Assembly: GCA_964611295.1 (NCBI GenBank)
Contig: CAZSWV010000002.1
Coordinates: forward strand, 74,988-138,987
Direction: 5' to 3'
DNA from: an uncultured Thermodesulfobacteriota bacterium
GTDB taxonomy: Bacteria > Desulfobacterota > B13-G15
Length of the DNA: 64,000 bases
Positions 26,824-61,200 of the stretch are shown piece after piece; position 1 is the first letter of the stretch, and each line of letters begins with the position of its first letter. The position numbers and the translations under genes were made by a program. The notes beneath the pieces are model-generated. The model did not search any database. It was not told the origin of the DNA and saw nothing but the letters and a program-made list of their open reading frames with translations.

Positions 26824-27247
26824 ATCTTATTACAAAGTTTTCACCGATTTGAAAAGCATATTGTCCTAGTTGGTAAAAGGCAAGACGTGAAATCTTTGCG
26901 GGAAATTTCCTATCTTTAACTTTACAATAAGGTATCCCCTTGGAACTTAAATAAAATGTGTCTAAGTCAAGTATTTCTTCTGTTCCATCATTAAGGTGTA
27001 TTTTAAAAACGTCATCTTTTTTTTCGATCCATTTAACGATAAAAACGGTGTCTTCTACTTCAACAGGTTCTTTATACCCCTCCCACTCAATCCAATAATT
27101 ACCTTTATCATCTGTTCTTAAGTTGTTTAAAAATTCTTTTATGATATCCTTTCTAATTATTTCCTGATCGCAATAATACCAGCGGCCTTCGCTATCTACT
27201 CGAATTAAAGCCTTATCCTTCATCACCGAGCCTTTTTGATTTTTCAT
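26792..27247 (-). CDS. Hypothetical protein, about 143-151 aa
   Basis: ORF tightly coupled to proC. I recognise no family. Confidence 0.45.
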   Translation of the reverse strand: MKNQKGSVMKDKALIRVDSEGRWYYCDQEIIRKDIIKEFLNNLRTDDKGNYWIEWEGYKEPVEVEDTVFIVKWIEKKDDVFKIHLNDGTEEILDLDTFYLSSKGIPYCKVKDRKFPAKISRLAFYQLGQYAFQIGENFVIRFKGKDYILNK

Positions 27248-28007
27248 ATGCTGCGTAGATGGCTTCCATTATGGCTGCCCTTACTCCCCAGCGTTCCAAA
27301 ACAAACATCCCTTCCGCTGTAGTCCCTGCCGGGGAAGTAACCTCTTCCCTAAGAATAGCAGGATGTTTACCAAGTAACACCATTTTAGCAGTCCCCATTA
27401 CCGTTTGAGCCGACAATATCAGGGCGTCCTCTCTTTTTAATCCCAACCTAACCCCTGCTTCGACCATAGCTTCTATAAAGAGAGACACATATGCAGGACC
27501 ACTACCACTTAAGCCAGTTATCGCATCCATTTTGTTTTCTTCTACGATAATCACCTTCCCCATGGTACTAAGCAAAGAAACTACTTGATTGATATCTTCT
27601 TCTGATGCCTCCGTTCCTTTGCATACTGCAATCGCTCCTTCATTTACCAAAAGCGGGAGATTTGGCATTACACGTATAACCTTTGCATTTTTCTTCAGTA
27701 CTGAAATAATCTTCGATATCTTCAAACCTGCTATAACTGATACAATAATTTTTTTCTCTGTAATAAAGGGGCTTATTTCTTCAAGAACATCAATAGCTTC
27801 TTGAGGTTTAACAGCAATCCACACTATATCAGCTTTTTTCGCAATATGGGAATTGTTTTCATAAACCGATATACCGAGTTCTTCAGCTAAACGACACCGC
27901 TCTTTAGACTTATCTGATGCTATTATTTCCTCTTTTTTTAAGCTTCTTAAGAAACTATTAATAAGTGCTAACCCTATTTTCCCTATCCCAATAACACCTA
28001 CCACCAT
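27213..28007 (-). CDS. proC: Pyrroline-5-carboxylate reductase
   Basis: N-terminal motif VGVIGIGKIG and ProC-like length and C-terminus. Confidence 0.85.
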   Translation of the reverse strand: MVVGVIGIGKIGLALINSFLRSLKKEEIIASDKSKERCRLAEELGISVYENNSHIAKKADIVWIAVKPQEAIDVLEEISPFITEKKIIVSVIAGLKISKIISVLKKNAKVIRVMPNLPLLVNEGAIAVCKGTEASEEDINQVVSLLSTMGKVIIVEENKMDAITGLSGSGPAYVSLFIEAMVEAGVRLGLKREDALILSAQTVMGTAKMVLLGKHPAILREEVTSPAGTTAEGMFVLERWGVRAAIMEAIYAAYEKSKRLGDEG

Positions 28008-28050: not shown

Positions 28051-29790
28051 TTAGTATTTATATCCTCTTGAAGTGACCATTTTCGATTTTTTTATAAAAG
28101 TTTGGGAATTGCCAACTATTATAGTAGTATCCATCTCTATAGGGTAATTTTCTAACTCTACTAAACTTGTTATCCAAAATTTACATCCCTCTCGGTATGC
28201 TTTTTTTACTATTGCAACAGGTGTATTGGGTTTTTTATATTGAAGCAAAATTTCCTTTATTTCTTTTATCCTATCACGATTTTTGCTTCGAGGGTTTAAC
28301 AAAACCAATACAAAATCTGCAGCAGCTGCTTTCCTAAGCCTATCTTCTATAAGCTCCCATGGGACTAAACGATCGGATAAGCTAATGACCGAAAAATCGC
28401 CAATCAAAGGGGCTCCTACTAGAGAAGCTGCTGCATTAATGCTAGAAATACCAGGTATTATTTCCACATCTATGGTATGATCTTCAAGTAACTCAAATAC
28501 AATTCCAGCCATCCCGTAAACACCAGGATCACCTGCACTTACAATGCTTACTATTTTACCGCTTGCAGCCTCTTCTAGCGCTCTTTTAGCTCTTTCTACT
28601 TCATGGGTCATGCCGTACACAAGAAGTTTTTTGTCTTTAATGATAGGTTCTATCAATTTAACATAAGTACTATATCCTATTACCACATCAGACTCCCTTA
28701 AAGCCTTTACAGCCTGTGGAGTAATAAGCTCTAAATCACCTGGTCCAATTCCCACCACATAAAGCTTACCTTTTGGCCTAAACGCAACTTCAGCTAAAGC
28801 AAAAGTGACGTGATCAAAAACCCTCTTAGGAGCTATTAATACTCCTCCACTTGCTAAAAGAGCTGCTTGCTCTGAGAGTGAATCTATTCCTATGGCCTTC
28901 TTCACCTTATCAGAAGAGCTAACAGATTTTACCTTTCTTAATTCCTCTTCTGAATAACCAAGGATTTCCACTTTCAAAGCTTCCTTCAAAGAAACAATAA
29001 CTGGATGTTGTACTTTGCGTCTAAGTGTCGCTATAGCCTTGATAGCTTCAGGTAAAACTCCTAAAGAATCCAGCCATTTCTGCAATGTGACTTTAACATA
29101 TTCTGGATTTACTAAATCGTGAAAACCTATCCCAACAAAAAGATTTTGGGGGACAAACTGTACTTTACTTTCTAACGAAACAAATTTACGATTAGAAATC
29201 AATATGTCGGCTTTTTCTGGGTCTTCCACTTCTTCTATACCTTTTGGTAAATTAATGTGAACTTTTTTATCGACAAACGCTAAAAGTTTTCCATTATTCA
29301 ATAACTTTTCTTGTATCGATGGTAACTTTGATTTATTAATTATACGGAACCCCAATTTTTTAGCCCAAAGATCTAAAGCTTCAACTTCCCATAGGTCAGA
29401 GGAAGTTGATATAACAACTTGTGCTCCCAATAAGGTAGATATCTCATTTGCCAAGTGATTTGCTCCTGCTAAATGTCCTCCGCAGAGTGGTATAACAAAA
29501 TTACCTTTTTCATCGATTACTAACACTGCAGGGTCTTTCTCTTTGTCATGAAGAAGGCGTGCTATGATACGAACTACAATCCCTGTAGCCATTACAAAGA
29601 TCAAGAAGTTATTTTGTTTCCATAAAGAGTCTACTAGTTTCGGTTCTAATCTCCTAACATTGGCATTAGGATAAAAAGGTCTTAATTTTTCTATCAATTT
29701 ATAACCGCGGTCACTTATGTAAATAAACACTATATTTCCCTTATCGTGCTTCATGTTTTTTATTCCCATAAAGTTTGGACCTTTTCCCAA
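28051..29790 (-). CDS. cbiGH: CbiG-CbiH fusion (cobalt-precorrin-5A hydrolase / precorrin-3B C17-methyltransferase)
   Basis: CbiG-like N-terminal portion of about 330 aa, then a tetrapyrrole methylase domain starting KLYVVGIGPGD. The start codon is uncertain (M1, M8 or M13). Confidence 0.8.
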   Translation of the reverse strand: MGKGPNFMGIKNMKHDKGNIVFIYISDRGYKLIEKLRPFYPNANVRRLEPKLVDSLWKQNNFLIFVMATGIVVRIIARLLHDKEKDPAVLVIDEKGNFVIPLCGGHLAGANHLANEISTLLGAQVVISTSSDLWEVEALDLWAKKLGFRIINKSKLPSIQEKLLNNGKLLAFVDKKVHINLPKGIEEVEDPEKADILISNRKFVSLESKVQFVPQNLFVGIGFHDLVNPEYVKVTLQKWLDSLGVLPEAIKAIATLRRKVQHPVIVSLKEALKVEILGYSEEELRKVKSVSSSDKVKKAIGIDSLSEQAALLASGGVLIAPKRVFDHVTFALAEVAFRPKGKLYVVGIGPGDLELITPQAVKALRESDVVIGYSTYVKLIEPIIKDKKLLVYGMTHEVERAKRALEEAASGKIVSIVSAGDPGVYGMAGIVFELLEDHTIDVEIIPGISSINAAASLVGAPLIGDFSVISLSDRLVPWELIEDRLRKAAAADFVLVLLNPRSKNRDRIKEIKEILLQYKKPNTPVAIVKKAYREGCKFWITSLVELENYPIEMDTTIIVGNSQTFIKKSKMVTSRGYKY

Positions 29791-30499
29791 AGGGTTCTTT
29801 TATTGCCTTTAAAGCTTCCCCGACGTATATAAGTGCTGTCCTTTTGATGGAATTTCTTTCAATAATCAGATCAAGCTCAGAAAGTTTTCCTAAGAAGACT
29901 TGTCCATCTGGCCAAGTTATTTTGTGCAGAACCGCTATCGGTGTGTCCCCCGGTAGTGTTTCTAACAAAGTTTCTTTGAGTGGTTTTACCAAAGAAGTGC
30001 TCAAGAAAAAGACCATGGTAGCCCTAAGTGAAGCTATTCGCTTTATTTCCTCTTTTGTAAGCCCTCCTGTATTTCCTTTAAACCTCAATAATATGACAGC
30101 TTCTGAAATCTCGGGTACCGTGAGTTCTACGGCCATAATCGCTGCTCCAGCCATGGCTGATGACACTCCAGGGATAACCTCATAAGGTATTCCCCTTGAT
30201 TTCAGCTCTTCCATCTGTTCTTGGATAGCGCTGTAAATACTCGGGTCACCGCTTACAAGCCTAACGACATCTTCACCCTTTTTAACGTGTTGTTCCATTA
30301 AATCAACTAACTCCTCCAAAGCCATCTTTGAAGAGTCAAAGAGCGTAGCTCTTATGCCCTTTATTATCTCAGGATTCAACAGACTACCAGGGTAGATGAC
30401 ACACGAAGCAGTTTCAAGAAGCCTCTTGGCTTTGACCGTTAGAAGCTCCGGATCTCCTGGACCCGCCCCTACGAAATATACTTTTCCTAACTTCTGCAC
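29741..30499 (-). CDS. cbiF: Cobalt-precorrin-4 C11-methyltransferase
   Basis: VYFVGAGPGDPELLTVKA and a CbiF-like length. Confidence 0.85.
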   Translation of the reverse strand: MQKLGKVYFVGAGPGDPELLTVKAKRLLETASCVIYPGSLLNPEIIKGIRATLFDSSKMALEELVDLMEQHVKKGEDVVRLVSGDPSIYSAIQEQMEELKSRGIPYEVIPGVSSAMAGAAIMAVELTVPEISEAVILLRFKGNTGGLTKEEIKRIASLRATMVFFLSTSLVKPLKETLLETLPGDTPIAVLHKITWPDGQVFLGKLSELDLIIERNSIKRTALIYVGEALKAIKEPFGKRSKLYGNKKHEAR

Positions 30500-31158
30500 T
30501 TTTTAACTACCACAAGAGAAAGGTAATCCTCGTCGTTATCTTCTAATGCCTCTAATCCCTCCCATATCTTTTGTTCGGGTAAGGTAGCCCTCTTAATGTA
30601 AAAAACCCTATAACGGTCAACGTCGATAAACTCCTTCAAATCCTTTATCTTACCTTTAACTTTTAAGAACACAAGGGTATCAAAATCGTTTATGTAAGTG
30701 CTTAAATTTTCACAGTATAAAACAGGGATAAGGGCAAGTTTTTCTTCACCTAGAACCAAAGGAAGTGGAATAGCACAAGCAGCAGCTGTAAAAGAACTAA
30801 CACCTGGTATTATTTCTACCGAAACTTTTTCCCTCAAATGATCGTAAATCCAAAAAAAAGTACAGTATAAGGAAGGATCGCCCAAGGTAACGTAAGTCCC
30901 TGTTTTAAAACGTTCTAACTCTTTAAGGATGACTTCCGAAGCCTTTGTAAGATGGACTTTTGGGTTTTGGGCCTTCATTGGAAATTCCAACAATACAACT
31001 TTTTGGCCTTTTAAAAATCCTCTTATGATCTCTAAAGCTCTACTATGCCCCTTTGTGGACGGACAAAAGACCACAGGGGCTTCTTCAAGGACCTTTCTGC
31101 CCTTAAGGGTTATAAGCTCAGGATCTCCCGGGCCTACCCCTACTACGTAAAGTTTCAC
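30487..31158 (-). CDS. cbiL: Cobalt-precorrin-2 C20-methyltransferase
   Basis: LYVVGVGPGDPELITLKG. The start forms an ATGA overlap with the upstream gene. Confidence 0.8.
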   Translation of the reverse strand: MKLYVVGVGPGDPELITLKGRKVLEEAPVVFCPSTKGHSRALEIIRGFLKGQKVVLLEFPMKAQNPKVHLTKASEVILKELERFKTGTYVTLGDPSLYCTFFWIYDHLREKVSVEIIPGVSSFTAAACAIPLPLVLGEEKLALIPVLYCENLSTYINDFDTLVFLKVKGKIKDLKEFIDVDRYRVFYIKRATLPEQKIWEGLEALEDNDEDYLSLVVVKKCRS

Positions 31159-32396
31159 CGTTTCCCCCTTATTACAAATACTGGGTTTAAAGCTTTAAAG
31201 CCCTTTTTGGTCCCAATGGGTTTGAGCCTAACTACGTTGACCTGCACCACATCGAGCTCGAAACCACATCCTTCAAAGCACTTTAAGGCTTCTGAAAAGG
31301 TCTCCACTGTCACAGCTGTAGTGACCACAACCTTAAGGCGTTCGATTTTGGTCAGTGTCCTTAATATTTCACCCAATTTTCCACCTGTCCCCCCTATGAA
31401 AACCCTATGTGGGGCTTCAAGCCCCATAAGGCATTCAGGAGCTTCACCTTTTATTACGATTAAATTGTCTAGACCAAACTTTTCCTTATTTTCCAACAAG
31501 GACTCAATGTCTCCCTTCTCAACAGCATAAACCTTAAGGGAGCGACTCAGTCTTGCCAACTCTACACTTATAGCTCCTGATCCAGCTCCTATGTCCCATA
31601 CTATACCCCTCCAAGGGGGTCTTAACTTATGGATGACAATAGCTCGTAACTCATCTTTCGTTATCATGCTCATTTTGTGATATATTTCGCTTTCCTCTAG
31701 ACCTATGATCGGTCCTCCAGGCTCTTCATGCGTTACGATTACAAAATGGGGATCTTCAATCTCCCACTTAAGGACCTCGTCTGCCGTTCCTTTCATCACC
31801 TTGAAATCGCTGTCCCCAAGCTTTTGGAATACAAAAAAAATGAGCCTTCCAGAAATAGTGTTTTTTAAAAAGTTTGCTAAGAACTTAGCATTTTTATTTG
31901 AGTCGGTAAGTACCGCCACTTTACCTTCTTCTTCCAAAACTCTTACTACTGCTTCTAGGGCAATTCCTTTGCCATGTAGACTTATAGTAGTTATACCGTG
32001 CCAGGGCTTTTTTATTATGCTAAGACCTATATTTAAACAAGAAACATCAGGCAAGATTTCGATTTTTTCCTCTCCTAACTCTTTAATAGCTTTTTCCGCT
32101 ATGCCAAAATACAAAGGATCCCCCGAAGCCAAAATTACAACATTTCCTTTGTGTAAAAAGGACGAAACTTTCGTGAAAAGCGTAGCTATATCTTGAACTT
32201 CGTACAGTTTGTTTTTTACTTTGTCATATTCCTTATACGATTTGAATATTTCATGTGAACGCGGAAGAGCAAAAATCACATCTGCCTCCTCAACGATTTT
32301 AAGAGCATCTCCGTCCAGAGGTTTGAAACCAATCCCTATGACAAAAACTTTATGTTTCTCTGTAACTAAGGAGATATATCTCCATGATGTATCCAT
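31155..32396 (-). CDS. cbiET: CbiE-CbiT fusion (cobalt-precorrin-6Y C5,C15-methyltransferase, decarboxylating; CobL-like)
   Basis: N-terminal tetrapyrrole methylase, then a C-terminal SAM methyltransferase with IVWDIGAGSGAISVE. Confidence 0.8.
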   Translation of the reverse strand: MDTSWRYISLVTEKHKVFVIGIGFKPLDGDALKIVEEADVIFALPRSHEIFKSYKEYDKVKNKLYEVQDIATLFTKVSSFLHKGNVVILASGDPLYFGIAEKAIKELGEEKIEILPDVSCLNIGLSIIKKPWHGITTISLHGKGIALEAVVRVLEEEGKVAVLTDSNKNAKFLANFLKNTISGRLIFFVFQKLGDSDFKVMKGTADEVLKWEIEDPHFVIVTHEEPGGPIIGLEESEIYHKMSMITKDELRAIVIHKLRPPWRGIVWDIGAGSGAISVELARLSRSLKVYAVEKGDIESLLENKEKFGLDNLIVIKGEAPECLMGLEAPHRVFIGGTGGKLGEILRTLTKIERLKVVVTTAVTVETFSEALKCFEGCGFELDVVQVNVVRLKPIGTKKGFKALNPVFVIRGKR

Positions 32397-33087
32397 GTTT
32401 TTCCCTCAAGGAACGTCTCAGTTTTATCAGTTGGTCTTTTACTTCGACCAACCTTCCTGAAAAAACCGTCTCTTTCTCGGTGCCAAGATAAGCCCCCCAA
32501 TAAATCCAAATATTTGGATCATTAATAAAGCGGAAACTTTCGTAGTTATCAAGAAATACAACGGTATTATCGCGGATTTCCTTTTTTTTCCTCATCACAC
32601 GCGGAGTGGTCAAAACGACTGATCCGGCTATATCGTTTAAGGATATTTTATGTTTAGCAGAAAGAAGCTGGATAGACGAAATTCCAGGAATTACTTCAAA
32701 ATGAATTGGTATAATTGTGGAAAGATAACGTAGTATCTCTATATAACCATCGTAAAGAGAAGGATCTCCTAAGACCAAAATACCAGCTTCTTCAATTTCT
32801 TGAATGGCACTTAATAACAATTTTGCTTTGTGTTTTCTCCATTCTTTAACCGAATCTACATAAGGCAACTCTGTTGGTCTCTGCCCGAAATCTAATCGTA
32901 TCAGTTCATAATCTTTTTGAGGACGTAAATGATTTAGGATTCTTTCTCGTAATAAAGTAAGGTGTTCCTTTTCACCCTTTTTATCAGGGATAATGAAATA
33001 CTGTAATTTTTTAATTAAGTCACAAGCTTCAAGGGTCAAATATTTAGGGTCACCTGGTCCTATGCCTATTATATAAACCTTCTTCAT
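32350..33087 (-). CDS. cobF: CobF-like precorrin-6A synthase (deacetylating) type tetrapyrrole methylase
   Basis: IIGIGPGDPKYLT at the N-terminus. The C-terminal motifs IYWGAYLGT...SGRLVEVKD...IMEIYLL are characteristic of CobF as far as I recall. Confidence 0.6.
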   Translation of the reverse strand: MKKVYIIGIGPGDPKYLTLEACDLIKKLQYFIIPDKKGEKEHLTLLRERILNHLRPQKDYELIRLDFGQRPTELPYVDSVKEWRKHKAKLLLSAIQEIEEAGILVLGDPSLYDGYIEILRYLSTIIPIHFEVIPGISSIQLLSAKHKISLNDIAGSVVLTTPRVMRKKKEIRDNTVVFLDNYESFRFINDPNIWIYWGAYLGTEKETVFSGRLVEVKDQLIKLRRSLREKHGYIMEIYLLSYRET

Positions 33088-33938
33088 TTTTCATTTATAG
33101 GAAATACGCCCTTCAAATGTTCTAACCAAATCCTTATTATCCTATTGCTCTCTGCAAGTCCTCTCAGCAGAGGTACTACTTTAAAACCTTCCTTTTCGAG
33201 TATGGACTTCCAACTGCTTGGATCTTCACCAGCCATGTCGTTTAAGACGTGATCTCCCGCAACAGCCATGAATGGTATGAGGTATACTTTCTTTACTTTA
33301 TTAATACGCAACTTGGGTATTATTTCCTCAAATTTAGGCCATCCTTCTACGGTAGCTAAAAATACGTTTGGGTCCTTTTGGTTAAGAACATAGGCTATTG
33401 CTACATACAAGTTGCCTGCGGGATGAGAGGTGCCATGTCCCATAAAAATGACACCATCTTTTGATGTCCTTTCCTTTGGGAGTTCCTCCAGGAGTATCTG
33501 AGCCACGTGTTCCAAATCTTCGTAAGAAGAGAGCAAAGGTGGAGAAACCACTATGTATTTCAACTTGTTTGACATCTTGGAAAACAATTCTGCGCTCCTC
33601 TTTAACTCATGGTATTCCTCACCGGGTATTACATGAAGGGATAATATTCCTATTTCTTCAACCCCTTCCTCTAGCATACGACAAAGGGCCATTTCAGGAG
33701 AGTCAACGTTAACCCCCTGCTCCCTTAGCTTTTCCCTGACCATCCTCGACGTATAGGCCCAACGGACGCTGGCCTCGGGGAATTCACCCTTAACCACTCG
33801 ATCCACCGCGTCGTAAACTTTTCTCGCTTCAGGAACACTGGTCCCAAAGGCAACGATCAATATGCCTTTTTTTGAGGTACTATGGCATATACCTATAACA
33901 CAAAGAACAAAAAAACTCACTATAACCAACACCCTCAT
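33084..33938 (-). CDS. cbiK: Sirohydrochlorin cobaltochelatase CbiK with an N-terminal signal peptide (periplasmic CbiK(P)-type)
   Basis: Hydrophobic leader MRVLVIVSFFVLCVIGICHS, then a CbiK fold with the metal-binding His residues. Confidence 0.75.
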   Translation of the reverse strand: MRVLVIVSFFVLCVIGICHSTSKKGILIVAFGTSVPEARKVYDAVDRVVKGEFPEASVRWAYTSRMVREKLREQGVNVDSPEMALCRMLEEGVEEIGILSLHVIPGEEYHELKRSAELFSKMSNKLKYIVVSPPLLSSYEDLEHVAQILLEELPKERTSKDGVIFMGHGTSHPAGNLYVAIAYVLNQKDPNVFLATVEGWPKFEEIIPKLRINKVKKVYLIPFMAVAGDHVLNDMAGEDPSSWKSILEKEGFKVVPLLRGLAESNRIIRIWLEHLKGVFPINEK

Positions 33939-33941
33939 ACT

Positions 33942-34547
33942 CTACCCCTCCTTTTGATTTTTAACAATTTTCAATAAAGCATTTACCACAGCAGCTGTTG
34001 CTGCTGATCCTCCTTTACGACTCAAGTTTGTTATAAATGGAAAATCTTGCTTACTTAAAATAATTTTGGCCTCCAACGCTTTAATGAAACCCACAGGCAT
34101 GCCTATTATTATTTTATCTTTTATCTTATTTACATTAAACAACTCAATTGCTGATAACAATGCAGTAGGCGAATTACCGATAGCGACAATTCCGATTTCC
34201 TGTCCTTTTTCAAAAAAAGCTACTCGTATAGCTTCTTCACACATAGTTCCAGAAGCAGTACTTACTTTATCAAGGTAGCATATAACCTCTATATCTGAGG
34301 ATAAATTTTTAGAAATACCTGCTTCAAGCATTTTTACGTCTACCAGAATTGCTTTTTTCTTTAATAGAGCATCTATGGCTACTGCAATTGCTTTGGGATG
34401 AAAGACCATAGTGTATCGGAATTCTGGATCGGCTGTGGCATGGATGACCCTTTTTATAATCTCTTTCTGTTCAAAAGGTATTCCTTCGAAATCAATTTCT
34501 CTTTCTATGAGTTCCAAGCTCTCTTTTTCTATTTGTTCACCACCCAT
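33942..34547 (-). CDS. cbiC: Cobalt-precorrin-8 methylmutase
   Basis: CbiC/CobH family features and length (201 aa). Confidence 0.8.
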   Translation of the reverse strand: MGGEQIEKESLELIEREIDFEGIPFEQKEIIKRVIHATADPEFRYTMVFHPKAIAVAIDALLKKKAILVDVKMLEAGISKNLSSDIEVICYLDKVSTASGTMCEEAIRVAFFEKGQEIGIVAIGNSPTALLSAIELFNVNKIKDKIIIGMPVGFIKALEAKIILSKQDFPFITNLSRKGGSAATAAVVNALLKIVKNQKEG

Positions 34548-34558
34548 GTGAAAAACTC

Positions 34559-35344
34559 CTAAAGGACATAGGGTACTATTACGGAAAACCCGTTGGTTTT
34601 TATGGAGTACACCTTTATCCCATAGACCTCTTCGATAAGATCTTCAGTTATGACTTCGGAAGGGGCTCCTTGTACCACGATTTCTCCTTTGTTTAATACC
34701 AAGACCCAATCGCCAAAAAACAGAGCCAAGTTCGGATCGTGTAAGCTAATTAAAACTCCTTTGCCCTCGTTATGTGAAAACTCCCTTATTTTAGACAAAA
34801 CCGTCCATTGGTTTTTAAAGTCCAAATGTGAAGTCGGCTCATCGAGTAGCACATAAGAAGCCCCTTGGGCAATGGCCCTTGCAAGGAGGGTCAATTGTCT
34901 TTCGCCTCCGCTTACCTTAGTATAGGTTTTTTCCCCCAAGTGCCCTATTCCAAGCATTTCCAAAGCCCTCTTGGCGATAAGAAGGTCTTTGTCTCCGGGG
35001 GTGGAGAAAACACCAAGGTGAGATACCCTCCCCATAAGTACGATTTCAAGGACTTTATAAGGAAAAGAAGGCTCGTGATCTTGTGGTACGTAGGAAATCC
35101 TTTTCGCCCTCTCCTTATAGGTTAAGGAGTTCACACTTTTACCATCTATCTTTATCGTCCCTTTTTGAGGTTTCCATATGCCTACAAGACATCTAAACAA
35201 GGTGCTTTTCCCAGAACCATTTGGGCCAAGTAAGACCGTGATTTCTCCTTTACGAACTCGGAAAGATACATCCCTCAGGATTTCCTGAGGTTGCCCCTTG
35301 TGTCTGAAAGTTAAGCCTTCAACTTCTAACATCAGCTTTCCCAA
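34559..35344 (-). CDS. ABC transporter ATP-binding protein, FepC/BtuD/HmuV type
   Basis: Walker A GPNGSGKST, signature LSGGERQ, Walker B LLDEPTSHLD. Confidence 0.88.
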   Translation of the reverse strand: MGKLMLEVEGLTFRHKGQPQEILRDVSFRVRKGEITVLLGPNGSGKSTLFRCLVGIWKPQKGTIKIDGKSVNSLTYKERAKRISYVPQDHEPSFPYKVLEIVLMGRVSHLGVFSTPGDKDLLIAKRALEMLGIGHLGEKTYTKVSGGERQLTLLARAIAQGASYVLLDEPTSHLDFKNQWTVLSKIREFSHNEGKGVLISLHDPNLALFFGDWVLVLNKGEIVVQGAPSEVITEDLIEEVYGIKVYSIKTNGFSVIVPYVL

Positions 35345-36333
35345 GTTTCTTTTCCCTTTTTCCTCATCAGATAAACGAAAAACGGAGCACCTGTAAGGGC
35401 CGTTATTATACCTACAGGAACGTCAAAACCCACAAAAGTCCTCGAAAGAGTATCTGCTCCTATCATAAAGGCGGCACCTCCAAATAACGAAAGAGGCAAA
35501 AGAACACTATGCTCTGGTCCAACCATCATCCTTACAATATGTGGCACCATTAACCCAACCCATCCAATAATTCCACATGTTGAAGTAGCAACAGCTACAG
35601 AAAAAGTCGAGAATAAGATAAATATCATCCGATCTCTCTTCACATTTACACCTAACGCATAAGCTTCTTCTTCTGAAAGACTCATTACGTTTAACCTCCA
35701 TCTCATAAGCACTATTGGCAATATTCCTACTATGGTTCCTATCAAAGCTATTTTAAAGTTACGCCAATCAGAAAGAGAAAAACTGCCCATTGTCCAAAAA
35801 ATTATACCTTGTAATTTATGGGGATCCACTAATATTTTTACAATAGAAACCAGAGCTGTGAAAAAAGCTGAAACTATTACACCTGAAAGCACCAATGGAA
35901 GTCTAGAAATTTCTTGTTGACTTTTTGCTACCATATAAGTAAGTGATACTGCTAAAAGTCCAAATATAAAAGCCATAGTTTGAACTGACCAAGATGGTAA
36001 AAACCCTATAGTTATAGCACATCCAAAAGCTGCTCCTGCTGAAATCCCTAAGATGTAAGGGTCGACCAAAGGATTCCGTAGCAGTCCTTGTAATACTGCC
36101 CCGGATCCTGCCAAAGAAGCCCCTACTGTTGCTGCCATTAATATTCGCGGTAGGCGTATATCTAAGATAATTGCCTTTTCTGGAATATTACTAATACCGT
36201 TATAGTTGGTGATTCCCTGGAATAATATCTTAATTACTGTAATTGGAGGGATATCATAAGTTCCTATAAAAAGGGAAAACAACCCTATTGCGAAGGGAGA
36301 AAGTATTATAAAGGACGTTTTAATCCTTTTCAT
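35332..36333 (-). CDS. FecCD-family ABC permease (BtuC/HmuU-like)
   Basis: Polytopic membrane protein with FecCD-type features. Confidence 0.85.
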   Translation of the reverse strand: MKRIKTSFIILSPFAIGLFSLFIGTYDIPPITVIKILFQGITNYNGISNIPEKAIILDIRLPRILMAATVGASLAGSGAVLQGLLRNPLVDPYILGISAGAAFGCAITIGFLPSWSVQTMAFIFGLLAVSLTYMVAKSQQEISRLPLVLSGVIVSAFFTALVSIVKILVDPHKLQGIIFWTMGSFSLSDWRNFKIALIGTIVGILPIVLMRWRLNVMSLSEEEAYALGVNVKRDRMIFILFSTFSVAVATSTCGIIGWVGLMVPHIVRMMVGPEHSVLLPLSLFGGAAFMIGADTLSRTFVGFDVPVGIITALTGAPFFVYLMRKKGKETWES

Positions 36334-37303
36334 ATGTTTTCACCTCTTGCCAAGATATGCTAAAAACCTTCTTGAAGAAAGCGTTCATTAGTTCTTGGAT
36401 TGTTGTACTTTCTATCCTTTCGAGGTGTAAATATTGATCCATCCACAAAGCCAATCCAATAATGGATGGTGACCATGTTTGTAGGTGGGGCATTCTGTAA
36501 ACCCTTTGGTTTTGTACTGCGCTGATCTTTTGCCATGCAGGATGTTTTAATATCCACTCTGGACCGTAACTTGTACTTCTCCAAAGGAATATAGTATCAG
36601 GATTCCATCCGATTATGCGTTCAAGGGAAACGTTTGCGTATTTTACTCCTAAGCCGCACGCTACATTTTCAGCGTTAAGGCACCTGAGCACGTCGTTAAT
36701 TATGCCTTGATCAGCGATTACCCGCGTTGGAGGATCGCTGAGGATGAGCACCCTTTTGTGGTTACCTTTTTTGTTTTCTAAATAGGACAGAAACCTCCTC
36801 ATCTCCATAATGATCTCCTTGGCTCTTTCTTCTTTTGCAAACAGCCTTCCGTGGACTTCTATAAGTTCAAAGAGGTCCTTTAATCCGTCAGGCCAGAAAG
36901 CCATGACTTTTATCCCTTTGTTTTCAAGGAATTGAAGAAGTTCGGGGTTGTTTGCCCACATGATGACTACGTCTGGGTTAAGTTGGGTTAGTTTTTCTAG
37001 ATCTATTTGCCATGGTGTTCCTATGATTGGCCTTCTCAAAGAAGGGTTTTTACGCAATAGAGCTTTAAAAACGGGAGAAAACTCGTAGGCATTTTGAGAT
37101 ATGCCTACCACGCGGTCCATTGCTCCAAGGGAACAAACGACCTCGTAGGTCATAGTAACCACGGCCCTTTTAACGGGGACTTCTAAGGTTATCCTTTTCC
37201 CTCTTGAGTCCCAAAAGGTCTCTTCTTTTCCCCAAAGCCGTCCATGGAAACTTGAGGCAATCAAGTACAATGCTGACAATAAGATGAAAGATTTGAGCCT
37301 CAT
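36320..37303 (-). CDS. Periplasmic substrate-binding protein (BtuF/HmuT-like)
   Basis: Signal peptide MRLKSFILLSALYLIASS. The start is re-called at ATG 37303, because the track's GTG start at 37336 lies inside the riboswitch terminator hairpin. Confidence 0.75.
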   Translation of the reverse strand: MRLKSFILLSALYLIASSFHGRLWGKEETFWDSRGKRITLEVPVKRAVVTMTYEVVCSLGAMDRVVGISQNAYEFSPVFKALLRKNPSLRRPIIGTPWQIDLEKLTQLNPDVVIMWANNPELLQFLENKGIKVMAFWPDGLKDLFELIEVHGRLFAKEERAKEIIMEMRRFLSYLENKKGNHKRVLILSDPPTRVIADQGIINDVLRCLNAENVACGLGVKYANVSLERIIGWNPDTIFLWRSTSYGPEWILKHPAWQKISAVQNQRVYRMPHLQTWSPSIIGLALWMDQYLHLERIESTTIQELMNAFFKKVFSISWQEVKTYEKD

Positions 37304-37304
37304 T

Positions 37305-37560
37305 AATAAAAAAACCCCACGTTTGTGGGGCTGCACCCGTTTTTCTCTTCGCCCCTTCCCCTATCCCTCGAGGGGATTAGGGTTATATGGTGGGCAGGTC
37401 TTCCGGCTCCCGGATCTTCCTACTCCCCGCACCTTCCCAGGGCCAGAGGCCCCAGTGGCCTACTGCGGGTTTCGTCCCCGGTCACGGCGGCGGGACCGCG
37501 GGGGATTTTCACCCCACTTCCCTTTTAAGCCCACAATGGGCACCCACCTATATTTTATTT
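37305..37560 (-). promoter_or_regulatory. Cobalamin (B12) riboswitch: aptamer at about 37405-37555, plus an expression-platform hairpin and U-tract at 37305-37330
   Basis: The minus-strand RNA reads GGUGCC...AAAAGGGAAGUGGGGUGAAAAUCCCCCGCGGUCCCGCC...AGGCCACUGG, which contains the B12 box GCCACUG. It is followed by CCCCACAAACGUGGGG and a U7 run just before the btuF ATG. The region is a GC-rich island in AT-rich DNA. Confidence 0.85.
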
Positions 37561-37618
37561 TCCCTCTCAATGAGTTTATGGTCAACAGTGTAGTCTTCTT
37601 GATAGAATCTTTTAGCTC

Positions 37619-38194
37619 ATGGGACTTTTGGTTGAACTTGACCTCAGAGGGAAAAGAGTCCTCTTAATAGGAGGAGGTTGTATAGCGACGAGGAGATTTT
37701 TAAAACTATACCAAGCCCGTCCTTCGCTATTAAGGGTAGTAGCAAAAAGGATACAGGAGGAAATCAAAAAAGTGGCTTTTGTCACCCCATGGATTGAACT
37801 TTTTGAAAGGGATTTTCAAGAAGAAGACCTAGAGGGCTTCCATATGGTATTGGCTGCAACAGATGACGCGGATCTCAATCGTAGGATAGCCTTTTTGGCA
37901 AGGGGAAAAGGTATGTGGGTCAACGTGGCAAATGATAGAGGACTTTCTGATTTTTTCTTCCTTGCTACTGTGGAAAGACCACCTTTGTCTATAGGGGTTT
38001 CTTCTTCAGGAACGCTTCCCGCCTTTTCAAGTGCCCTTAAGGAAGCTTTAGAATCAACTCTCCCATGGGATGAGCTTGTCCGTGAACTCCATCTACTGGT
38101 TATGCAAAGAGGCAAAATTCCTTCTTCGGAAATGCGCAAAAGATGTTTAAATAGGATACTTTCAGTGTGGCCTAAATTTACAAAGGACAAATAA
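37619..38194 (+). CDS. sirC: Precorrin-2 dehydrogenase / sirohydrochlorin ferrochelatase (SirC / CysG N-domain-like)
   Basis: LRGKRVLLIGGG Rossmann N-terminus, length 191 aa. Confidence 0.75.
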   Translation: MGLLVELDLRGKRVLLIGGGCIATRRFLKLYQARPSLLRVVAKRIQEEIKKVAFVTPWIELFERDFQEEDLEGFHMVLAATDDADLNRRIAFLARGKGMWVNVANDRGLSDFFFLATVERPPLSIGVSSSGTLPAFSSALKEALESTLPWDELVRELHLLVMQRGKIPSSEMRKRCLNRILSVWPKFTKDK

Positions 38195-38196
38195 AT

Positions 38197-39582
38197 TTAC
38201 TCTTTCTTAAAGAGGGTGGAAAAATTTGTCTCTAACGATAGACAATCAAAAAAAGGGGGAAGTATGAACTTTTCTTTTTTTTCCATAACTTTTTCCCCTT
38301 TCTCTCCGAACCTATCAAGGTAAGCTTCTAAGCAGACTTGATCACCAAAGACAAAGGTCGTAAAAGTATCCAGGTGTTCTTCTATTATCTTAGAAACGTT
38401 CTTACCAGAGGGAAGTACTTCTAAGAAATCTAAAAAATACACTTCAGCTCCAAGATCGCTTAAAAACATGTAAGTTGCTTTGTCCTTCATAGGAAGTCCT
38501 ATTTTCCTACCTTTTAGTCCATCTTTTTTTACATCGATCTCGAAAAGTTTATAGGGTATACCTTTTTCGAACAATATGGGTTTGCCATCTGCAGGACAGA
38601 GGATCTCAAATCTCATTTCCCTCAGGTCCAAGCCTAGACGATTAAAGGCCCTCAGCATAGGGGTCAGTAAGGCCCTTCTTGGAATAGCCAGGAAATCCAA
38701 GCCTTTTATTCTCTGTATCTCCTCCTTACAGGATGCCTTTGGCTCGTATTTCAAAACAGGAAAGACAAAGACCTTCGCCCCTTTTTCCTTTAGAAAGCTT
38801 GAAAGGAACAGCCCTTCTTCCTTAGGGGTTACTAACAAAATTTCCTTCCCTAACAGAGGACGTTTTTCAAACCAATTAAGTTTAAATCTGAGGTTACAGA
38901 CATCCCCGAGGACGATTAAAGAGGGAGACACTAGGTCGATACTAGACATTTCCTTTAGCTTGCCTTCTATTACCTTCTGCCTTGTTGTAGCCCCCCACGT
39001 TATAGCTGTAACAGGTGTATCAGGATCCATTCCAAGCGCAAGGAGACGCTGCAATGTTTCTTTCGCATTTTTAGCCCCCATAAATAATACCACCGTTCCT
39101 TTAAATTGAGCTATGGAAGCCCAGTTAATTGCTTGGTCTTTTTGAGGATCTTCATGACACGTAGCAGCGCAAAAACAAGAAGATATACGCCGATGAGTCA
39201 AAGGGATTCCTGCATAAGCAGGAACTGCATAAAGAGAACTTACACCTGGTACTACTTCAACATCAATATCTTTTTCAACTAGATACTCAACTTCTTCTCC
39301 TCCCCGACCAAATATAAAGGGATCTCCTCCTTTAAGTCTTACTACAAGTTTACCTTCCTTTGCTTTTTGTTCCATTACATAATTTATTTGTTCTTGAGTG
39401 ACATTGCGACGTTTACCGACAGGGATAAGTTCGGCTTCTTCTTTACAGTGAACCAAAATTTCATGAGGAATAAGGTCATCATAAAGCACAACGTCTGCCT
39501 TTTTTAACACTTCTAATCCTCTACAGGTAATCAGACCTGGATCTCCTGGACCTGCCCCTACTATGTAAACTTTTCCAGCCAC
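38197..39582 (-). CDS. cobA-hemD: Uroporphyrinogen-III C-methyltransferase fused to uroporphyrinogen-III synthase (CobA-HemD)
   Basis: VYIVGAGPGDPGLIT SUMT domain, then a HemD-like C-terminal portion of about 220 aa. Confidence 0.82.
   Translation of the reverse strand: MAGKVYIVGAGPGDPGLITCRGLEVLKKADVVLYDDLIPHEILVHCKEEAELIPVGKRRNVTQEQINYVMEQKAKEGKLVVRLKGGDPFIFGRGGEEVEYLVEKDIDVEVVPGVSSLYAVPAYAGIPLTHRRISSCFCAATCHEDPQKDQAINWASIAQFKGTVVLFMGAKNAKETLQRLLALGMDPDTPVTAITWGATTRQKVIEGKLKEMSSIDLVSPSLIVLGDVCNLRFKLNWFEKRPLLGKEILLVTPKEEGLFLSSFLKEKGAKVFVFPVLKYEPKASCKEEIQRIKGLDFLAIPRRALLTPMLRAFNRLGLDLREMRFEILCPADGKPILFEKGIPYKLFEIDVKKDGLKGRKIGLPMKDKATYMFLSDLGAEVYFLDFLEVLPSGKNVSKIIEEHLDTFTTFVFGDQVCLEAYLDRFGEKGEKVMEKKEKFILPPFFDCLSLETNFSTLFKKE

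Positions 39583-44966: not shown

Positions 44967-44983
<17 letters not shown>
44204..44983 (+). CDS. folE2: GTP cyclohydrolase FolE2/MptA (type IB)
   Basis: FolE2-family length and motifs (CPCSK...HNQRG). Confidence 0.75.
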
Positions 44984-47713
<2,730 letters not shown>

Positions 47714-50973: not shown

Positions 50974-51735
50974 ATGAAAGGAGACATCGAAAAAATAAGA
51001 AAGATCATAAAAGAATTGAGAGGAGAAAACGGTTGCCCCTGGGATAAAAAGCAAAATATTGAAACGCTAAAGCCTTTTCTTATCGAGGAAACTTATGAAG
51101 TAATTGAGAATATAGACAACAAAAATTGGCAAGGATTATCAGAAGAATTAGGAGATCTTCTATTCCTATTATTTTTCATTATCACAATTGCCGAAGAAGA
51201 GAACTTGTTTAGTTTATCTGATGTAGTGGATAAAGTATGTAATAAAATAATTAATCGCCATCCTCATGTGTTTCAGAAAGACAATAAAATCACAACACCA
51301 GAAGAAGTAGAAAAACAATGGTACAGATTAAAACAACTTGAGAAAAGGAGTGTTATGGAAGGAATACCTAAAGCTTTACCTGCATTAATGAGAGCCTATA
51401 AAATCACAAAAAGAGCTCAACAGATAGGTTTCGATTGGAATAGTGCTTGTGAAGTTTTTCAGAAGATTAAAGAAGAAATAGAAGAGCTAGAAAAAGAAAT
51501 AAAAGGGAATAACTTGAATAATATCAAGCTTGAAATAGGAGATGTATTACTTAGTATTGTAAACCTTGCAAGATTGTTAAATATAAATGCAGAAGAGGCC
51601 CTTCATAATGCGTGCGATCGTTTTTTAGAGCGTTTTAATTATATAGAACAAAAAATAAAAGAAATGGGAAAAGATTTTGGGGAAGTATCCTTTCACGAAA
51701 TGGATGCGTTATGGGATGAAGCGAAAAGGAAATGA
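50974..51735 (+). CDS. mazG: Nucleoside triphosphate pyrophosphohydrolase MazG
   Basis: Tandem MazG domains (EETYEV...ELGDLL). Confidence 0.85.
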   Translation: MKGDIEKIRKIIKELRGENGCPWDKKQNIETLKPFLIEETYEVIENIDNKNWQGLSEELGDLLFLLFFIITIAEEENLFSLSDVVDKVCNKIINRHPHVFQKDNKITTPEEVEKQWYRLKQLEKRSVMEGIPKALPALMRAYKITKRAQQIGFDWNSACEVFQKIKEEIEELEKEIKGNNLNNIKLEIGDVLLSIVNLARLLNINAEEALHNACDRFLERFNYIEQKIKEMGKDFGEVSFHEMDALWDEAKRK

Positions 51736-52415
51736 AAGGGGTACTTTATATTGTAGCTACTCCGATAGGCAATTTAGAAGATGTAACATTGCGCGCTTTG
51801 AAGATACTGCGAGAAGTAGATGTAATAGCAGCTGAAGATACGCGAAAAGTTCGCATTTTATTAAGACGTTACAAGATAACTTCGTCTTCGGTGATAAGTT
51901 TTTTCCAAGGCAATGAAGAAAGAAGAACCAAGGAGATTATCGAAATGCTTCTCGAAGGCAAAAAGGTGGCTTTAGTGTCGGAATCCGGTACCCCTACTAT
52001 CTCCGATCCAGGCTATAAACTTGTTAAAGAGGCTATTGAGCAAGGACTGCACGTGGTCCCTATACCTGGACCTTCTGCTTTAATAGCAGCATTAAGCGCT
52101 TCTGGTTTACCTACAGATTCCTTTTGTTTTTTTGGCTTTCTTCCCCCAAAAGGTTCCAAACGCAGAAAACGTTTAGAACAATTGGCAAGGTGTCGCCCAA
52201 CCGTGATTTTGTATGAATCGCCACGACGTTTAGAAGCTACTTTAGAAGACCTATTGAAATGGTGCGGTAATAGACGAATAGTCTTAGCCAGGGAGATCAC
52301 AAAATTTCATGAAGAGTTTTTACGGGGTACTATTGAAGAAGTATTGGAAGAGATAAGACGTCTTCCTCGACAAGGGGAGATAACGTTAATAATGGAGGGG
52401 CTTGGATGGCGTTGA
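51732..52415 (+). CDS. rsmI: 16S rRNA (cytidine1402-2'-O)-methyltransferase
   Basis: [19 protein letters not shown]-terminus of the tetrapyrrole-methylase-like RsmI family. Confidence 0.85.
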
Positions 52416-60700: not shown

Positions 60701-61200
60701 TGAGGCCCATAAAAGTAAAAGAAGCTGAAATTTGTATAAAAGCTTTAGGGGAAGAAAAAAACCTAAGAGTGTGTACAGATATATTAACAGATGGATGGAA
60801 CAGAATGGTTAGTTTTGATACTTACAATATTCAAGAAGGCATAATTAACGTAGAAAATAACAAAGAATTCAGAAGTGAACCTAAAGCTTTTTTATATACT
60901 CAAGGAGAGTTAGTTCAGGAAATGCGCGAAAAGGGTATCGGAAGGCCGTCTACTTACGCAACAATTGTTGAAAAGTTATTAGAAAGACATTACGTAATAG
61001 AAAAAAAGGGACGTCTAATACCAACTAAGTTAGGGAAAAAAGTCTATCAATATCTCCTTCAATACGAAAAGGTACGAAACTTTTTGTCCGAGAATTTTAC
61101 AAAACACCTTGAAAAACTTATGGACGAAGTAGAAGAAGGGAAAGGAGATTACGAGTACATTCTAAAACAATTATATACTCAAATCTGTAATATTACATAA
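57796..61200 (+). CDS. rgy: Reverse gyrase
   Basis: N-terminal Zn-finger CPNCKG...CERC, a helicase-like domain with LLAPTGVGKT, and a C-terminal topoisomerase IA (Toprim plus catalytic Tyr) region. 1134 aa. Confidence 0.9.
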   Translation: MIKAIFKGLCPNCKGDISSDRLEKGLPCERCLPNETDPEYLIKGALTDFLSLREEERQWVEHFTKYMKSPPWSLQIAWARRVFLGRSFALLAPTGVGKTSFGVSMSSYLAKKGKKTYIIVPTRLLVEQITEKLLLFGVEKKTILAFGDEGSDRREKKLQLKEGFFNVLITTSMFLYKNYDIIPRFFDFIFIDDVDSFLKTAKNIDKVLLLLGFSEESIEKALNLIKLRSKRYKEEHDRSQIEYFLKELKELRQKNRVLVVSSATSTPKSDRVRLFKELLGFEVGAPMFYLRNVVDVYTKSNLPLYEWIKELGQGGLVFVPSDVGREKIAEIIKELQTQGISAISYEDVSESTLRKFENGQIDVIIGIASYRNPLARGLDLPHAIRYALFWGVPKIVISLKFETNISHLLWALSSLRSAIAKNLPQYITKVDRWISQLRHLQHFSEDFLSTKPWLNDKAKRLREEIHSFLNADIFINLMSSSNEVTLRRLQDGYYMVISDATGYLQASGRTSRMFAGGVTKGLSLLIVDDERAFTHLQKKLRWFSEEIKFKELGEIDLSQILREIDEDREKIKKIKLGEISSGHKEILKPVLIIVESPNKARTIANFFGKAIRRKIGEQEVLETSVEDKYLMITSSFGHILDLCTEGGFYGVKVNEEVVPIYEPIDNRESIIQSLRLISEEVFEVLIATDPDTEGEKIGWDILMLLMPFVNKIRRMEFHEVTKKAIINSLKNPRDFHESLVKAQILRRVADRWIGFEFSRLLWKEFGTNILSAGRVQTPVLGWIIAKEAEYRKRIYKVIVRIGVNRKPLRVEFVFEEKDKAKQFFENLKEVEVTINTVIEEERHPPPPLRTDTLLKEANDKLRFSVPLTMQLAQILFELGFITYHRTDSIRVSDYGISLAKEYVKEEFAEEYFAGRSWSQEGAHECIRPTKPLDGNELRALVLSGQIEGLSRDHVLLYDLIFKRFIASQMRPIKVKEAEICIKALGEEKNLRVCTDILTDGWNRMVSFDTYNIQEGIINVENNKEFRSEPKAFLYTQGELVQEMREKGIGRPSTYATIVEKLLERHYVIEKKGRLIPTKLGKKVYQYLLQYEKVRNFLSENFTKHLEKLMDEVEEGKGDYEYILKQLYTQICNIT

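Follow-up and report, generated by a model that had tools for sequence, protein, structure and literature searches.

Which enzyme methylates C1 of the corrin ring in a cobalt-early cobalamin operon that has no cbiD? The question is raised by a stretch of 64,000 nucleotides (nt) from an uncultured Thermodesulfobacteriota bacterium (contig CAZSWV010000002.1, positions 74,988 to 138,987; hereafter the window), in which a B12 riboswitch heads an operon of the order btuFCD-cbiC-cbiK-cobF-cbiET-cbiL-cbiF-cbiGH. The gene of interest, cobF, is an ATG-started open reading frame (ORF) of 245 amino acids (aa) at 32350-33087 on the minus strand. A sequence-only reading of this DNA had put CobF forward as a replacement for CbiD, and that proposal is supported here by the slot that the gene occupies, by a collinear operon with CbiD in its place and by cbiD relics abutting cobF. 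The window CobF is probably the C1 methyltransferase of the cobalt-early pathway, replacing CbiD. On this account its substrate would be cobalt-precorrin-5B, C1 would be methylated with no deacetylation required, and no cbiD would be found elsewhere in the genome.

The window protein is a genuine member of the CobF family of S-adenosylmethionine (SAM)-dependent class III tetrapyrrole methyltransferases. The C-terminal block from which the sequence-only reading had recognized this 245-aa methylase as CobF-like is present in the translation (...IWIYWGAYLGTEKETVFSGRLVEVKDQLIKLRRSLREKHGYIMEIYLLSYRET), and the identification has been borne out by a curated hidden Markov model (HMM), by solved structures and by the predicted fold. 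The NCBIfam equivalog TIGR02434 (CobF) matches the protein with 222.8 bits (E 5e-66; curated cut-off 195.8 bits) over profile positions 1-248 of 250, and no assignment to a different methylase family was found: the runner-up NCBIfam family, cobI_cbiL, reaches 79.7 bits, far under its own cut-off, and Pfam reports the generic TP_methylase domain alone (PF00590, 95.9 bits). Full-length phmmer matches were obtained to the solved CobF structures 2NPN (E 9e-41) and 3ND1 (E 5e-36), the latter being the Rhodobacter capsulatus precorrin-6A synthase (PDB), and in the alignment a terminal motif, HG[WY]IM[DE]IYLL, is common to the window protein and both structures. An AlphaFold (AF2) model built from 24 homologues, with a mean predicted local distance difference test (pLDDT) score of 89.5, gave Foldseek template modeling (TM) scores of 0.87 to 3ND1, 0.81 to 2NPN and 0.74 to CbiL. 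Annotated rhizobial cobF products are 38-40% identical to it.

Conservation within the family was compared among 24 Thermodesulfobacteria-type, 34 Nitrospirota/Desulfobacterota-type and 21 aerobic-type sequences. At 38 positions the same residue is found in at least 85% of each of the three groups, in aerobic and anaerobic contexts alike; these include W197, G198, Y200, G202, G232, M235 and Y238 (the WG.Y.G...G..M..Y block) and cover the SAM-site motifs GxGxG and GDPSLYD. Position 115, in the SAM-site loop GDPSLYDG[H/T] (window codon near 32743-32745), is the sole consistent difference, with His in at least 85% of the anaerobic-context sequences and Thr in the aerobic ones. Being a single position, and Tyr in the window protein, it was rejected as a residue signature dividing the two contexts, and we draw no mechanistic conclusion from it. 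The gene itself is under purifying selection. In comparisons of the window with two relatives at 78-82% identity, the ratio of nonsynonymous to synonymous substitution rates (dN/dS) is 0.077-0.092 for cobF and 0.05-0.23 for the neighbouring cbi genes, values that are approximate because synonymous sites are near saturation.

Is this CobF, then, the CbiD of the operon under another name? CbiD has no sequence similarity to the window CobF, belongs to another fold family, is longer (~360-385 aa) and falls outside the class III TP_methylases; neither queries nor profiles of CbiD matched the window protein. What the two have in common is the operon slot (after cbiC or btuR, before cbiE) and, presumably, the reaction and its substrate. 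The window CobF is a positional analogue of CbiD and not a member of the CbiD family (PF01888/TIGR00312). That the cluster is without cbiD, as the sequence-only reading had stated, held up across the 64 kb: neither Pfam scans of all sizeable ORFs (PF01888) nor a CbiD profile applied to every six-frame segment of at least 30 aa found one, and tblastn with a single alphaproteobacterial CbiD or CobK query gave no match. The description of the cluster as otherwise complete-looking was too generous, since cbiJ is also missing, cbiA/P/B and cobS/T/U lie outside the window and CbiK looks exported. Of the companions expected of an aerobic pathway (CobG/CobZ, CobK, CobNST), CobG, CobK and CobN gave no match in the window; CbiG, which marks the anaerobic pathway, is present as the N-terminal 335 aa of a CbiG-CbiH fusion.

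The remaining neighbours named by the sequence-only reading (CbiC, CbiK, CbiE-T, CbiL, CbiF and CbiG-H) were all matched by NCBIfam or Pfam models, and they leave a single position of the ring unattended. CobA accounts for C2/C7, CbiL for C20, CbiH for C17, CbiF for C11, CbiT for C15 and CbiE for C5. With a dedicated enzyme in the operon for each of the other ring methylations, C1 alone is left vacant. The retention of CbiG, as a fusion with CbiH, argues that in these loci CobF would have to supply only its methyltransferase activity. Set against the chemistry of the two canonical routes (reviewed in PMC7242693), the pathway may be imagined as follows. CbiH, CbiF and CbiG would lead to cobalt-precorrin-5B, with lactone opening and loss of the C2 fragment brought about by CbiG, and the CobF-type enzyme would move a SAM methyl group to C1 of this intermediate to give cobalt-precorrin-6A. 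A reductase other than CbiJ would perform the CbiJ step, after which CbiT/CbiE (C15/C5 methylation, decarboxylation) and then CbiC (methyl shift) would lead to cobyrinic acid, the whole operon being switched off by B12 via its riboswitch.

How widespread is the arrangement? A pattern-based scan of one genome per species returned 481 CobF relatives, of which 80 loci (numbered below with the prefix L) were kept, and their neighbours were classed by phmmer against reference proteins from the window and from annotated plasmid records. Loci with CbiG and/or CbiX/CbiK, and with neither CobG nor CobK/CbiJ, were taken as anaerobic-type; there are 44 of them, the window and Caldimicrobium counted, next to 11 aerobic-type loci (CobG or CobK) and a remainder too short to class. 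CobG or CobK is confined to the 11 aerobic-type loci of this set. The exact window CobF was found on hot-spring-type metagenome contigs. Relatives at 50-60% identity belong to Thermodesulfobacteria, including the cultured Caldimicrobium thiodismutans and Thermodesulfobacterium hydrogeniphilum, and those at 42-48% to metagenome-assembled genomes (MAGs) of Thermodesulfovibrionales. The anaerobic-type loci come from Thermodesulfobacteriota (Caldimicrobium, Thermodesulfatator, Thermodesulfobacterium), Nitrospirota/Thermodesulfovibrionales, SEEP-SRB2, Eth-SRB1, Syntrophobacter and Desulfaltia; the cultured anaerobes with the arrangement are C. thiodismutans, T. hydrogeniphilum and, by a contig with a CbiE named for it, Thermodesulfovibrio thiophilus. 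Their common architecture is (CobT CobS CobQ CbiB CobD CbiA) CbiX-CbiC, CobF, CbiE-T, CbiL, CbiF, CbiG-H, to which the Nitrospirota versions add CbiQ, the adenosyltransferase BtuR and a ThiC/BzaB-like gene, and in many of these relatives 15-18 cob/cbi genes stand in a single row, from which only cbiD and cbiJ are missing. The CobF-for-CbiD operon type is widespread in Thermodesulfobacteriota, Thermodesulfovibrionales/Nitrospirota and several Desulfobacterota lineages.

Within these operons cobF holds the place of cbiD. Annotated clusters of Salmonella, Peptoclostridium, Manganitrophus, Thermus, Deinococcus and Thiodictyon have cbiD immediately behind cbiC, immediately ahead of cbiE, or both. 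In 37 of the 44 anaerobic-type loci the next gene after CobF is CbiE(-T), and in 23 the gene just before it is CbiC or CbiX-CbiC. The Peptoclostridium order CbiC-CbiD-CbiE-CbiT-CbiL-CbiF-CbiG-CbiH-CbiJ is collinear with CbiC-CobF-CbiET-CbiL-CbiF-CbiGH of T. hydrogeniphilum. A closer pair is provided by L103, a 1.04-Mb metagenomic contig reached by a search with the neighbouring CbiE-T protein, whose operon reads CobQ-CbiB-CobD-CbiA-CbiX/C-CbiM-N-Q-O-BtuR-CbiD-CbiET-CbiL-CbiF-CbiGH-GATase-like (GATase, glutamine amidotransferase). Ten of its flanking proteins are 45-75% identical, in the same order, to those of the CobF-type Nitrospirota loci L036-L039, L064 and L075, and the sole difference is a 384-aa CbiD (PF01888; L103:8863-10017, plus strand) in the position of CobF. 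In otherwise collinear operons, CbiD and CobF are interchangeable. A weaker point is that the nearest relatives of the L103 CbiD, within its best 120 matches, come from Nitrospirota, Dissulfurispira, Syntrophorhabdales and Desulfobacterota MAGs, so that CbiD- and CobF-type operons coexist within the same phyla.

A trace of the replacement is left in the DNA upstream of cobF. Across the window and all CobF loci, translated into ~20,500 six-frame segments, a profile of seven, then eight, CbiD sequences detected no intact CbiD; the same profile recovered the CbiD of L103 as a positive control (E 5.5e-138). What was found, immediately upstream of cobF on two Desulfobacterota-type MAG contigs, are truncated N-terminal relics of cbiD. 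The relic of L071 (5070-5315, plus strand) retains 57 CbiD-like residues corresponding to CbiD profile positions ~9-69 (E 7e-10 and 3e-11) and is recognized independently by NCBIfam TIGR00312 (positions 1-52 of 346, E 1.9e-11). That of L044 (~9908-9997, plus strand) is a 30-aa ORF (MKLNRKLRKGFTTGTAAAASAKAVLMLIRR) with 28 CbiD-like residues, ending 4 nt before the ATG of cobF. The 5' junction of cobF is identical in both (GATAAGGAGATAGATGAAGAAAATATATCTTATTGG), and this shared junction records a single ancestral event by which most of cbiD gave way to cobF, the remnant having decayed since. In at least one instance, a CobF operon arose by cobF landing inside cbiD. Together, the relics and the collinear CbiD and CobF operons make a clean case of in-situ non-orthologous gene displacement.

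Both relic loci also carry a 349-aa membrane protein between cbiL and the cbiD relic (L071:4012-5061 and L044:8850-9899, both plus strand). It has no Pfam or NCBIfam match, and may be the predicted cobalt transporter CbtX of PMC545781.

Displacement of cbiD is not the only history that can be drawn from the family. On a neighbor-joining (NJ) tree rooted on CbiL paralogues only and without support values, two anaerobic-context clades flank the aerobic CobF clade. For this reason it could be argued that the CobF-type enzyme is the native C1 methyltransferase of an old, widespread third variant of corrin synthesis in Thermodesulfobacteriota, Nitrospirota and Desulfobacterota, one that is cobalt-early, CbiG-dependent and free of CbiD and CbiJ, and from which the aerobic CobF was recruited. 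We regard this broader history as a tentative suggestion and rather doubtful.

The CobF of the contig with the T. thiophilus-named CbiE (Nitrospirota; L102:9277-10011, plus strand) is 59% identical to that of the window and 69% to that of L011. It clusters with the Thermodesulfobacteria-type CobFs, apart from the other Nitrospirota CobFs, a placement that points to lateral transfer between thermophiles; cytochrome bd oxidase genes lie near the cbi operon of the same contig. In the 90%-identity cluster of the window CobF, one member is deposited as 'Candidatus Bathyarchaeia archaeon' (MEM0487791.1), all other relatives being bacterial, and this is probably a mis-binned contig.

Returning to the window CobF as a CbiD replacement, other explanations of the operon have to be weighed. 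The true C1 methyltransferase could be a CbiD encoded elsewhere in the genome, with the CobF-like enzyme accessory or redundant. Only 64 kb of the genome is visible, and cbi genes can scatter; here cbiA/P/B and cobS/T/U also lie outside the window. Against this stand the strings of many relatives that are 15-18 genes long and lack only cbiD and cbiJ, the L103 operon, in which CbiD is found in place of CobF and not in addition to it, and the destroyed cbiD beside cobF in two loci. The strong purifying selection on cobF also speaks against redundancy. No named species with CobF figures among the best 120 CbiD matches, although this does not prove absence, and by eye, a weak comparison, no genome seems common to the best-120 lists of CobF and CbiD, though both overlap the CbiET list. 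We consider a CbiD at another site unlikely.

The enzyme could instead deacylate and methylate C1 in one step on cobalt-precorrin-5A, as in the aerobic route, with CbiG auxiliary or otherwise employed. The protein has kept each of the 38 positions that are conserved in aerobic CobFs, so that support for deacetylation may persist. On the other hand, nearly every anaerobic-type locus that is long enough still has CbiG, as a rule fused to CbiH, and the anaerobic intermediate bears a lactone and not the C1 acetyl group of precorrin-5 (PMC7242693), which makes a one-step reaction quite unlikely. It is improbable, too, that the corrin-ring operon is incomplete or non-functional and that the organism salvages corrinoids via the co-transcribed BtuFCD. 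Two canonical steps (CbiD, CbiJ) are without their canonical genes, and a B12-type ABC importer does sit in the same riboswitch-controlled operon; but the eight biosynthetic genes are all undamaged (dN/dS 0.05-0.23), three phyla share this gene set, and a missing cbiJ is common in anaerobes presumed to produce B12 (PMC545781). Very improbable is a role for the CobF-like protein at another ring position (as a second C20 or C11 methylase) or on another tetrapyrrole (sirohaem, a haem d1-type intermediate): class III methylases are paralogues of one another, and a generic domain, which is all that Pfam reports here, is a poor guide to their assignment, but the CobF equivalog score is far above those of all other methylase models, dedicated CbiL, CbiH, CbiF, CbiE, CbiT and CobA are encoded in the same operon or locus, and cobF is tied to the cbi operon in 44 loci.

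Some observations weigh against CobF as the C1 methyltransferase of a complete cobalt-early pathway. The search for cbiD covered 64 kb of the window genome and ~20 kb each of ~85 relatives. Every residue conserved in aerobic CobFs is kept in the window protein, so that the sequence shows neither a remodelled active site nor a positive sign of adaptation to a cobalt-bound substrate. CbiJ is missing too, so the pathway is incomplete as read and could be non-functional or less textbook-like. Finally, the window CbiK looks exported, which leaves the cytoplasmic cobaltochelatase of the organism uncertain.

The absence of CbiJ is a trait of these operons at large. No CbiJ (PF02571) was found in the window by Pfam scans of all sizeable ORFs, and a four-sequence CbiJ/CobK profile run over six-frame segments left the window and all 44 anaerobic-type loci without a match below E 0.1, its matches being confined to aerobic-type loci (E below 1e-46). 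The CbiD-type operon of L103 likewise has none. The gap was reported earlier for delta-proteobacteria (2004, PMC545781) and haloarchaea (2012, PMC3403918), and cbiJ is often missing in anaerobes regarded as B12 producers (PMC545781). Directly after cbiG-cbiH, where canonical operons have cbiJ, many relatives carry a GATase-like gene (~400-430 aa), the product of which has an N-terminal domain like those of class I glutamine amidotransferases/BPL_N, with a GICGGA motif. The gene is present in both CbiD-type and CobF-type operons without cbiJ, and is not found in the window. It matches nothing informative in Pfam, NCBIfam or the PDB, and could be linked to the missing reductase step. In the window, the cbiJ position is held by a proC-type reductase gene. 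This was rejected as an operon member or CbiJ substitute: the product passes the proC equivalog, the gene adjoins cbiGH only in the window and its two closest relatives (L100, L101) and not in more distant ones, and an 11/12 promoter match of its own between cbiGH and proC (28045-28017) suggests a separate unit. The adjacency is probably coincidence.

Cobalt insertion raises a problem of its own. The window CbiK begins with a hydrophobic extension of ~22 residues that resembles a signal peptide (MRVLVIVSFFVLCVIGICHSTS...) and is missing in Salmonella CbiK. A signal-peptide-like N-terminus is also seen in the CbiK homologues of L023, L044, L065, L071, L100 and L101, beside BtuFCD-type transporters, and most CbiK homologues in anaerobic-type loci carry a hydrophobic N-terminal extension. 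In this the window protein is like the CbiK of Desulfovibrio vulgaris, which is periplasmic (PMC4063343), and its place beside BtuFCD recalls the B12-element-controlled cbiK-cbiL/btuCDF unit of Desulfovibrio (PMC545781). In place of CbiK, relatives carry a CbiX domain fused to CbiC.

CobN-like large chelatase subunits (PF02514) adjoin the CobF-type cbi clusters of L014 (3-2762), L015, L056 and L068. In T. hydrogeniphilum such a subunit lies near the CobF-type cluster, and no CbiX or CbiK was found in the same 20 kb.

How does the window-type CobF relate to known systems? The aerobic CobF (precorrin-6A synthase, deacetylating, EC 2.1.1.152), known from Pseudomonas denitrificans, Sinorhizobium and Rhodobacter capsulatus, is of the same family, length and predicted fold, at 35-40% identity. 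The two differ in context, the window type occurring in anaerobic thermophiles with CbiG, CbiK/CbiX, SirC and a CbiE-T fusion and with no CobG or CobK nearby, whereas the aerobic type adjoins CobG or CobK. To judge from these contexts, they would also differ in substrate: the window type would receive a cobalt-bound intermediate already stripped of its C2 fragment by CbiG, whereas aerobic CobF deacetylates and C1-methylates the metal-free precorrin-5. The reverse hybrid, CbiD in aerobic-type cob clusters without CobF, has been proposed for Streptomyces and for plasmid pCMU01 of Methylobacterium extorquens CM4 (PMC3621897). There the same analogous pair of enzymes is exchanged across the aerobic/anaerobic divide, likewise on the basis of gene context, in the direction opposite to that of the window. 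In our comparisons cbiD was also present on Ralstonia, Azospirillum and Thermus replicons.

The gene family is known, and annotation pipelines already label these relatives precorrin-6A synthase; its context and what this implies appear to be new. No description of CobF in a cobalt-early operon, or substituting for CbiD, was found in the openly searchable full-text literature, and subscription papers may hold an earlier remark. In reviews and in surveys of genomes or metagenomes, CobF and CobG have been used as markers of the aerobic route, and CbiD and CbiG as markers of the anaerobic one (PMC545781, PMC6593275, PMC2667541). Because the same CobF/CbiD swap recurs across several anaerobic phyla, CobF is not a reliable aerobic-route marker. 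If CobF does stand in for CbiD, marker surveys would misclassify entire lineages of sulfate reducers and sulfur disproportionators from hot springs, the subsurface and seeps, scoring CobF-type anaerobes as aerobic-pathway organisms or as incomplete producers without CbiD. A class III methylase would then be able to act on cobalt-bound precorrin-5B, and CobF would offer an alternative to CbiD for the engineering of B12 pathways. The same operons draw attention to the CbiJ gap in many anaerobes.

The features of the operon and its surroundings are collected in Table 1. The score of the riboswitch aptamer compares with a gathering score of 31.5 for RF00174, and the hairpin just 3' of it is likely the expression platform. 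Because this hairpin overlaps the GTG at 37336 that was called mechanically as the btuF start, the true start is probably farther downstream, and shorter gene calls exist on matching contigs. As the riboswitch lies directly upstream of btuF, the whole string of genes, cobF included, is under B12 control; the start of cobF overlaps the cbiK stop by 4 nt, and its 3' end overlaps cbiET by 47 nt. The cbiC product scores up to 147 bits with NCBIfam precorrin-8X methylmutase models, all under their curated cut-offs. In the CbiG-CbiH fusion, the CbiH half (residues 343-578) reaches 296.4 bits with TIGR01466 (cut-off 246), and the CbiG half (residues 50-334) matches cobalt-precorrin-5A hydrolase models with 225 bits at best. 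Upstream of the riboswitch a SirC-like dehydrogenase is encoded; SirC makes sirohydrochlorin, the substrate of early cobalt insertion.

Table 1. Features of the corrin operon and its surroundings (window positions, except where a locus number is given)
Feature	Position	Strand	Evidence
proC-type NAD(P)H reductase, directly after cbiGH, in the cbiJ position	27213-28007	-	TIGR00112, 269.7 bits
cbiG-cbiH fusion, cobalt-precorrin-5A hydrolase + C17 methyltransferase	28051..29790	-	TIGR01466; PF11760; PF01890
cbiF, C11 methyltransferase	29741..30499	-	TIGR01465, 263.7 bits (cut-off 259.65)
cbiL, C20 methyltransferase	30487..31158	-	TIGR01467, 196 bits (cut-off 163)
cbiE-cbiT fusion, C5 + C15 methyltransferase/decarboxylase	31155..32396	-	TIGR02467, 116.3 (cut-off 92.9); TIGR02469, 90.3 (cut-off 78.3)
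cobF, putative C1 methyltransferase	32350..33087	-	TIGR02434; PDB 2NPN and 3ND1; AF2 model; dN/dS
cbiK-type sirohydrochlorin cobaltochelatase, possibly exported	33084..33938	-	PF06180; NF047852, 201.9 bits (cut-off 400)
cbiC, cobalt-precorrin-8 methylmutase	33942..34547	-	PF02570
btuD-like ABC ATPase	34559..35344	-	PF00005 ABC_tran
btuC-like ABC permease	35332..36333	-	PF01032 FecCD
btuF-like periplasmic binding protein, start codon uncertain	36320..37336	-	PF01497 Peripla_BP_2 on the identical gene in L001/L002
Terminator-like hairpin + T-run, just 3' of the aptamer	37313..37332	-	8-bp stem, 5 GC pairs, then TTTTTATT
Cobalamin riboswitch aptamer	37376..37561	-	Rfam RF00174, 120.1 bits, E 1.5e-29, full model 1-189
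sirC-like precorrin-2 dehydrogenase	37619..38194	+	TIGR01470, 102.2 bits (cut-off 62.3)
cobA-hemD fusion, uroporphyrinogen-III methyltransferase/synthase, upstream of the riboswitch	38197..39582	-	TIGR01469, 277.9 bits (cut-off 185)
GATase-like gene	L007:12526-13713; L014:15093-16352; L036:15500-16798; L103:14545-15828; ~14 more loci	- (L007)	

Farther from the operon, the window holds a second gene with a TP_methylase domain (51732-52415, plus strand; 227 aa), which adjoins a MazG gene and probably encodes the rRNA methyltransferase RsmI and not a corrin enzyme. An ORF of 318 aa (44967-45923, minus strand) matches no Pfam family at E 1e-6 or better. A reverse gyrase gene (57796-61200, plus strand) points to a thermophile as the source of the window, and a catalase-peroxidase-type gene (PF00141; 17447-19699, plus strand) is found in what is presumably an anaerobic one.

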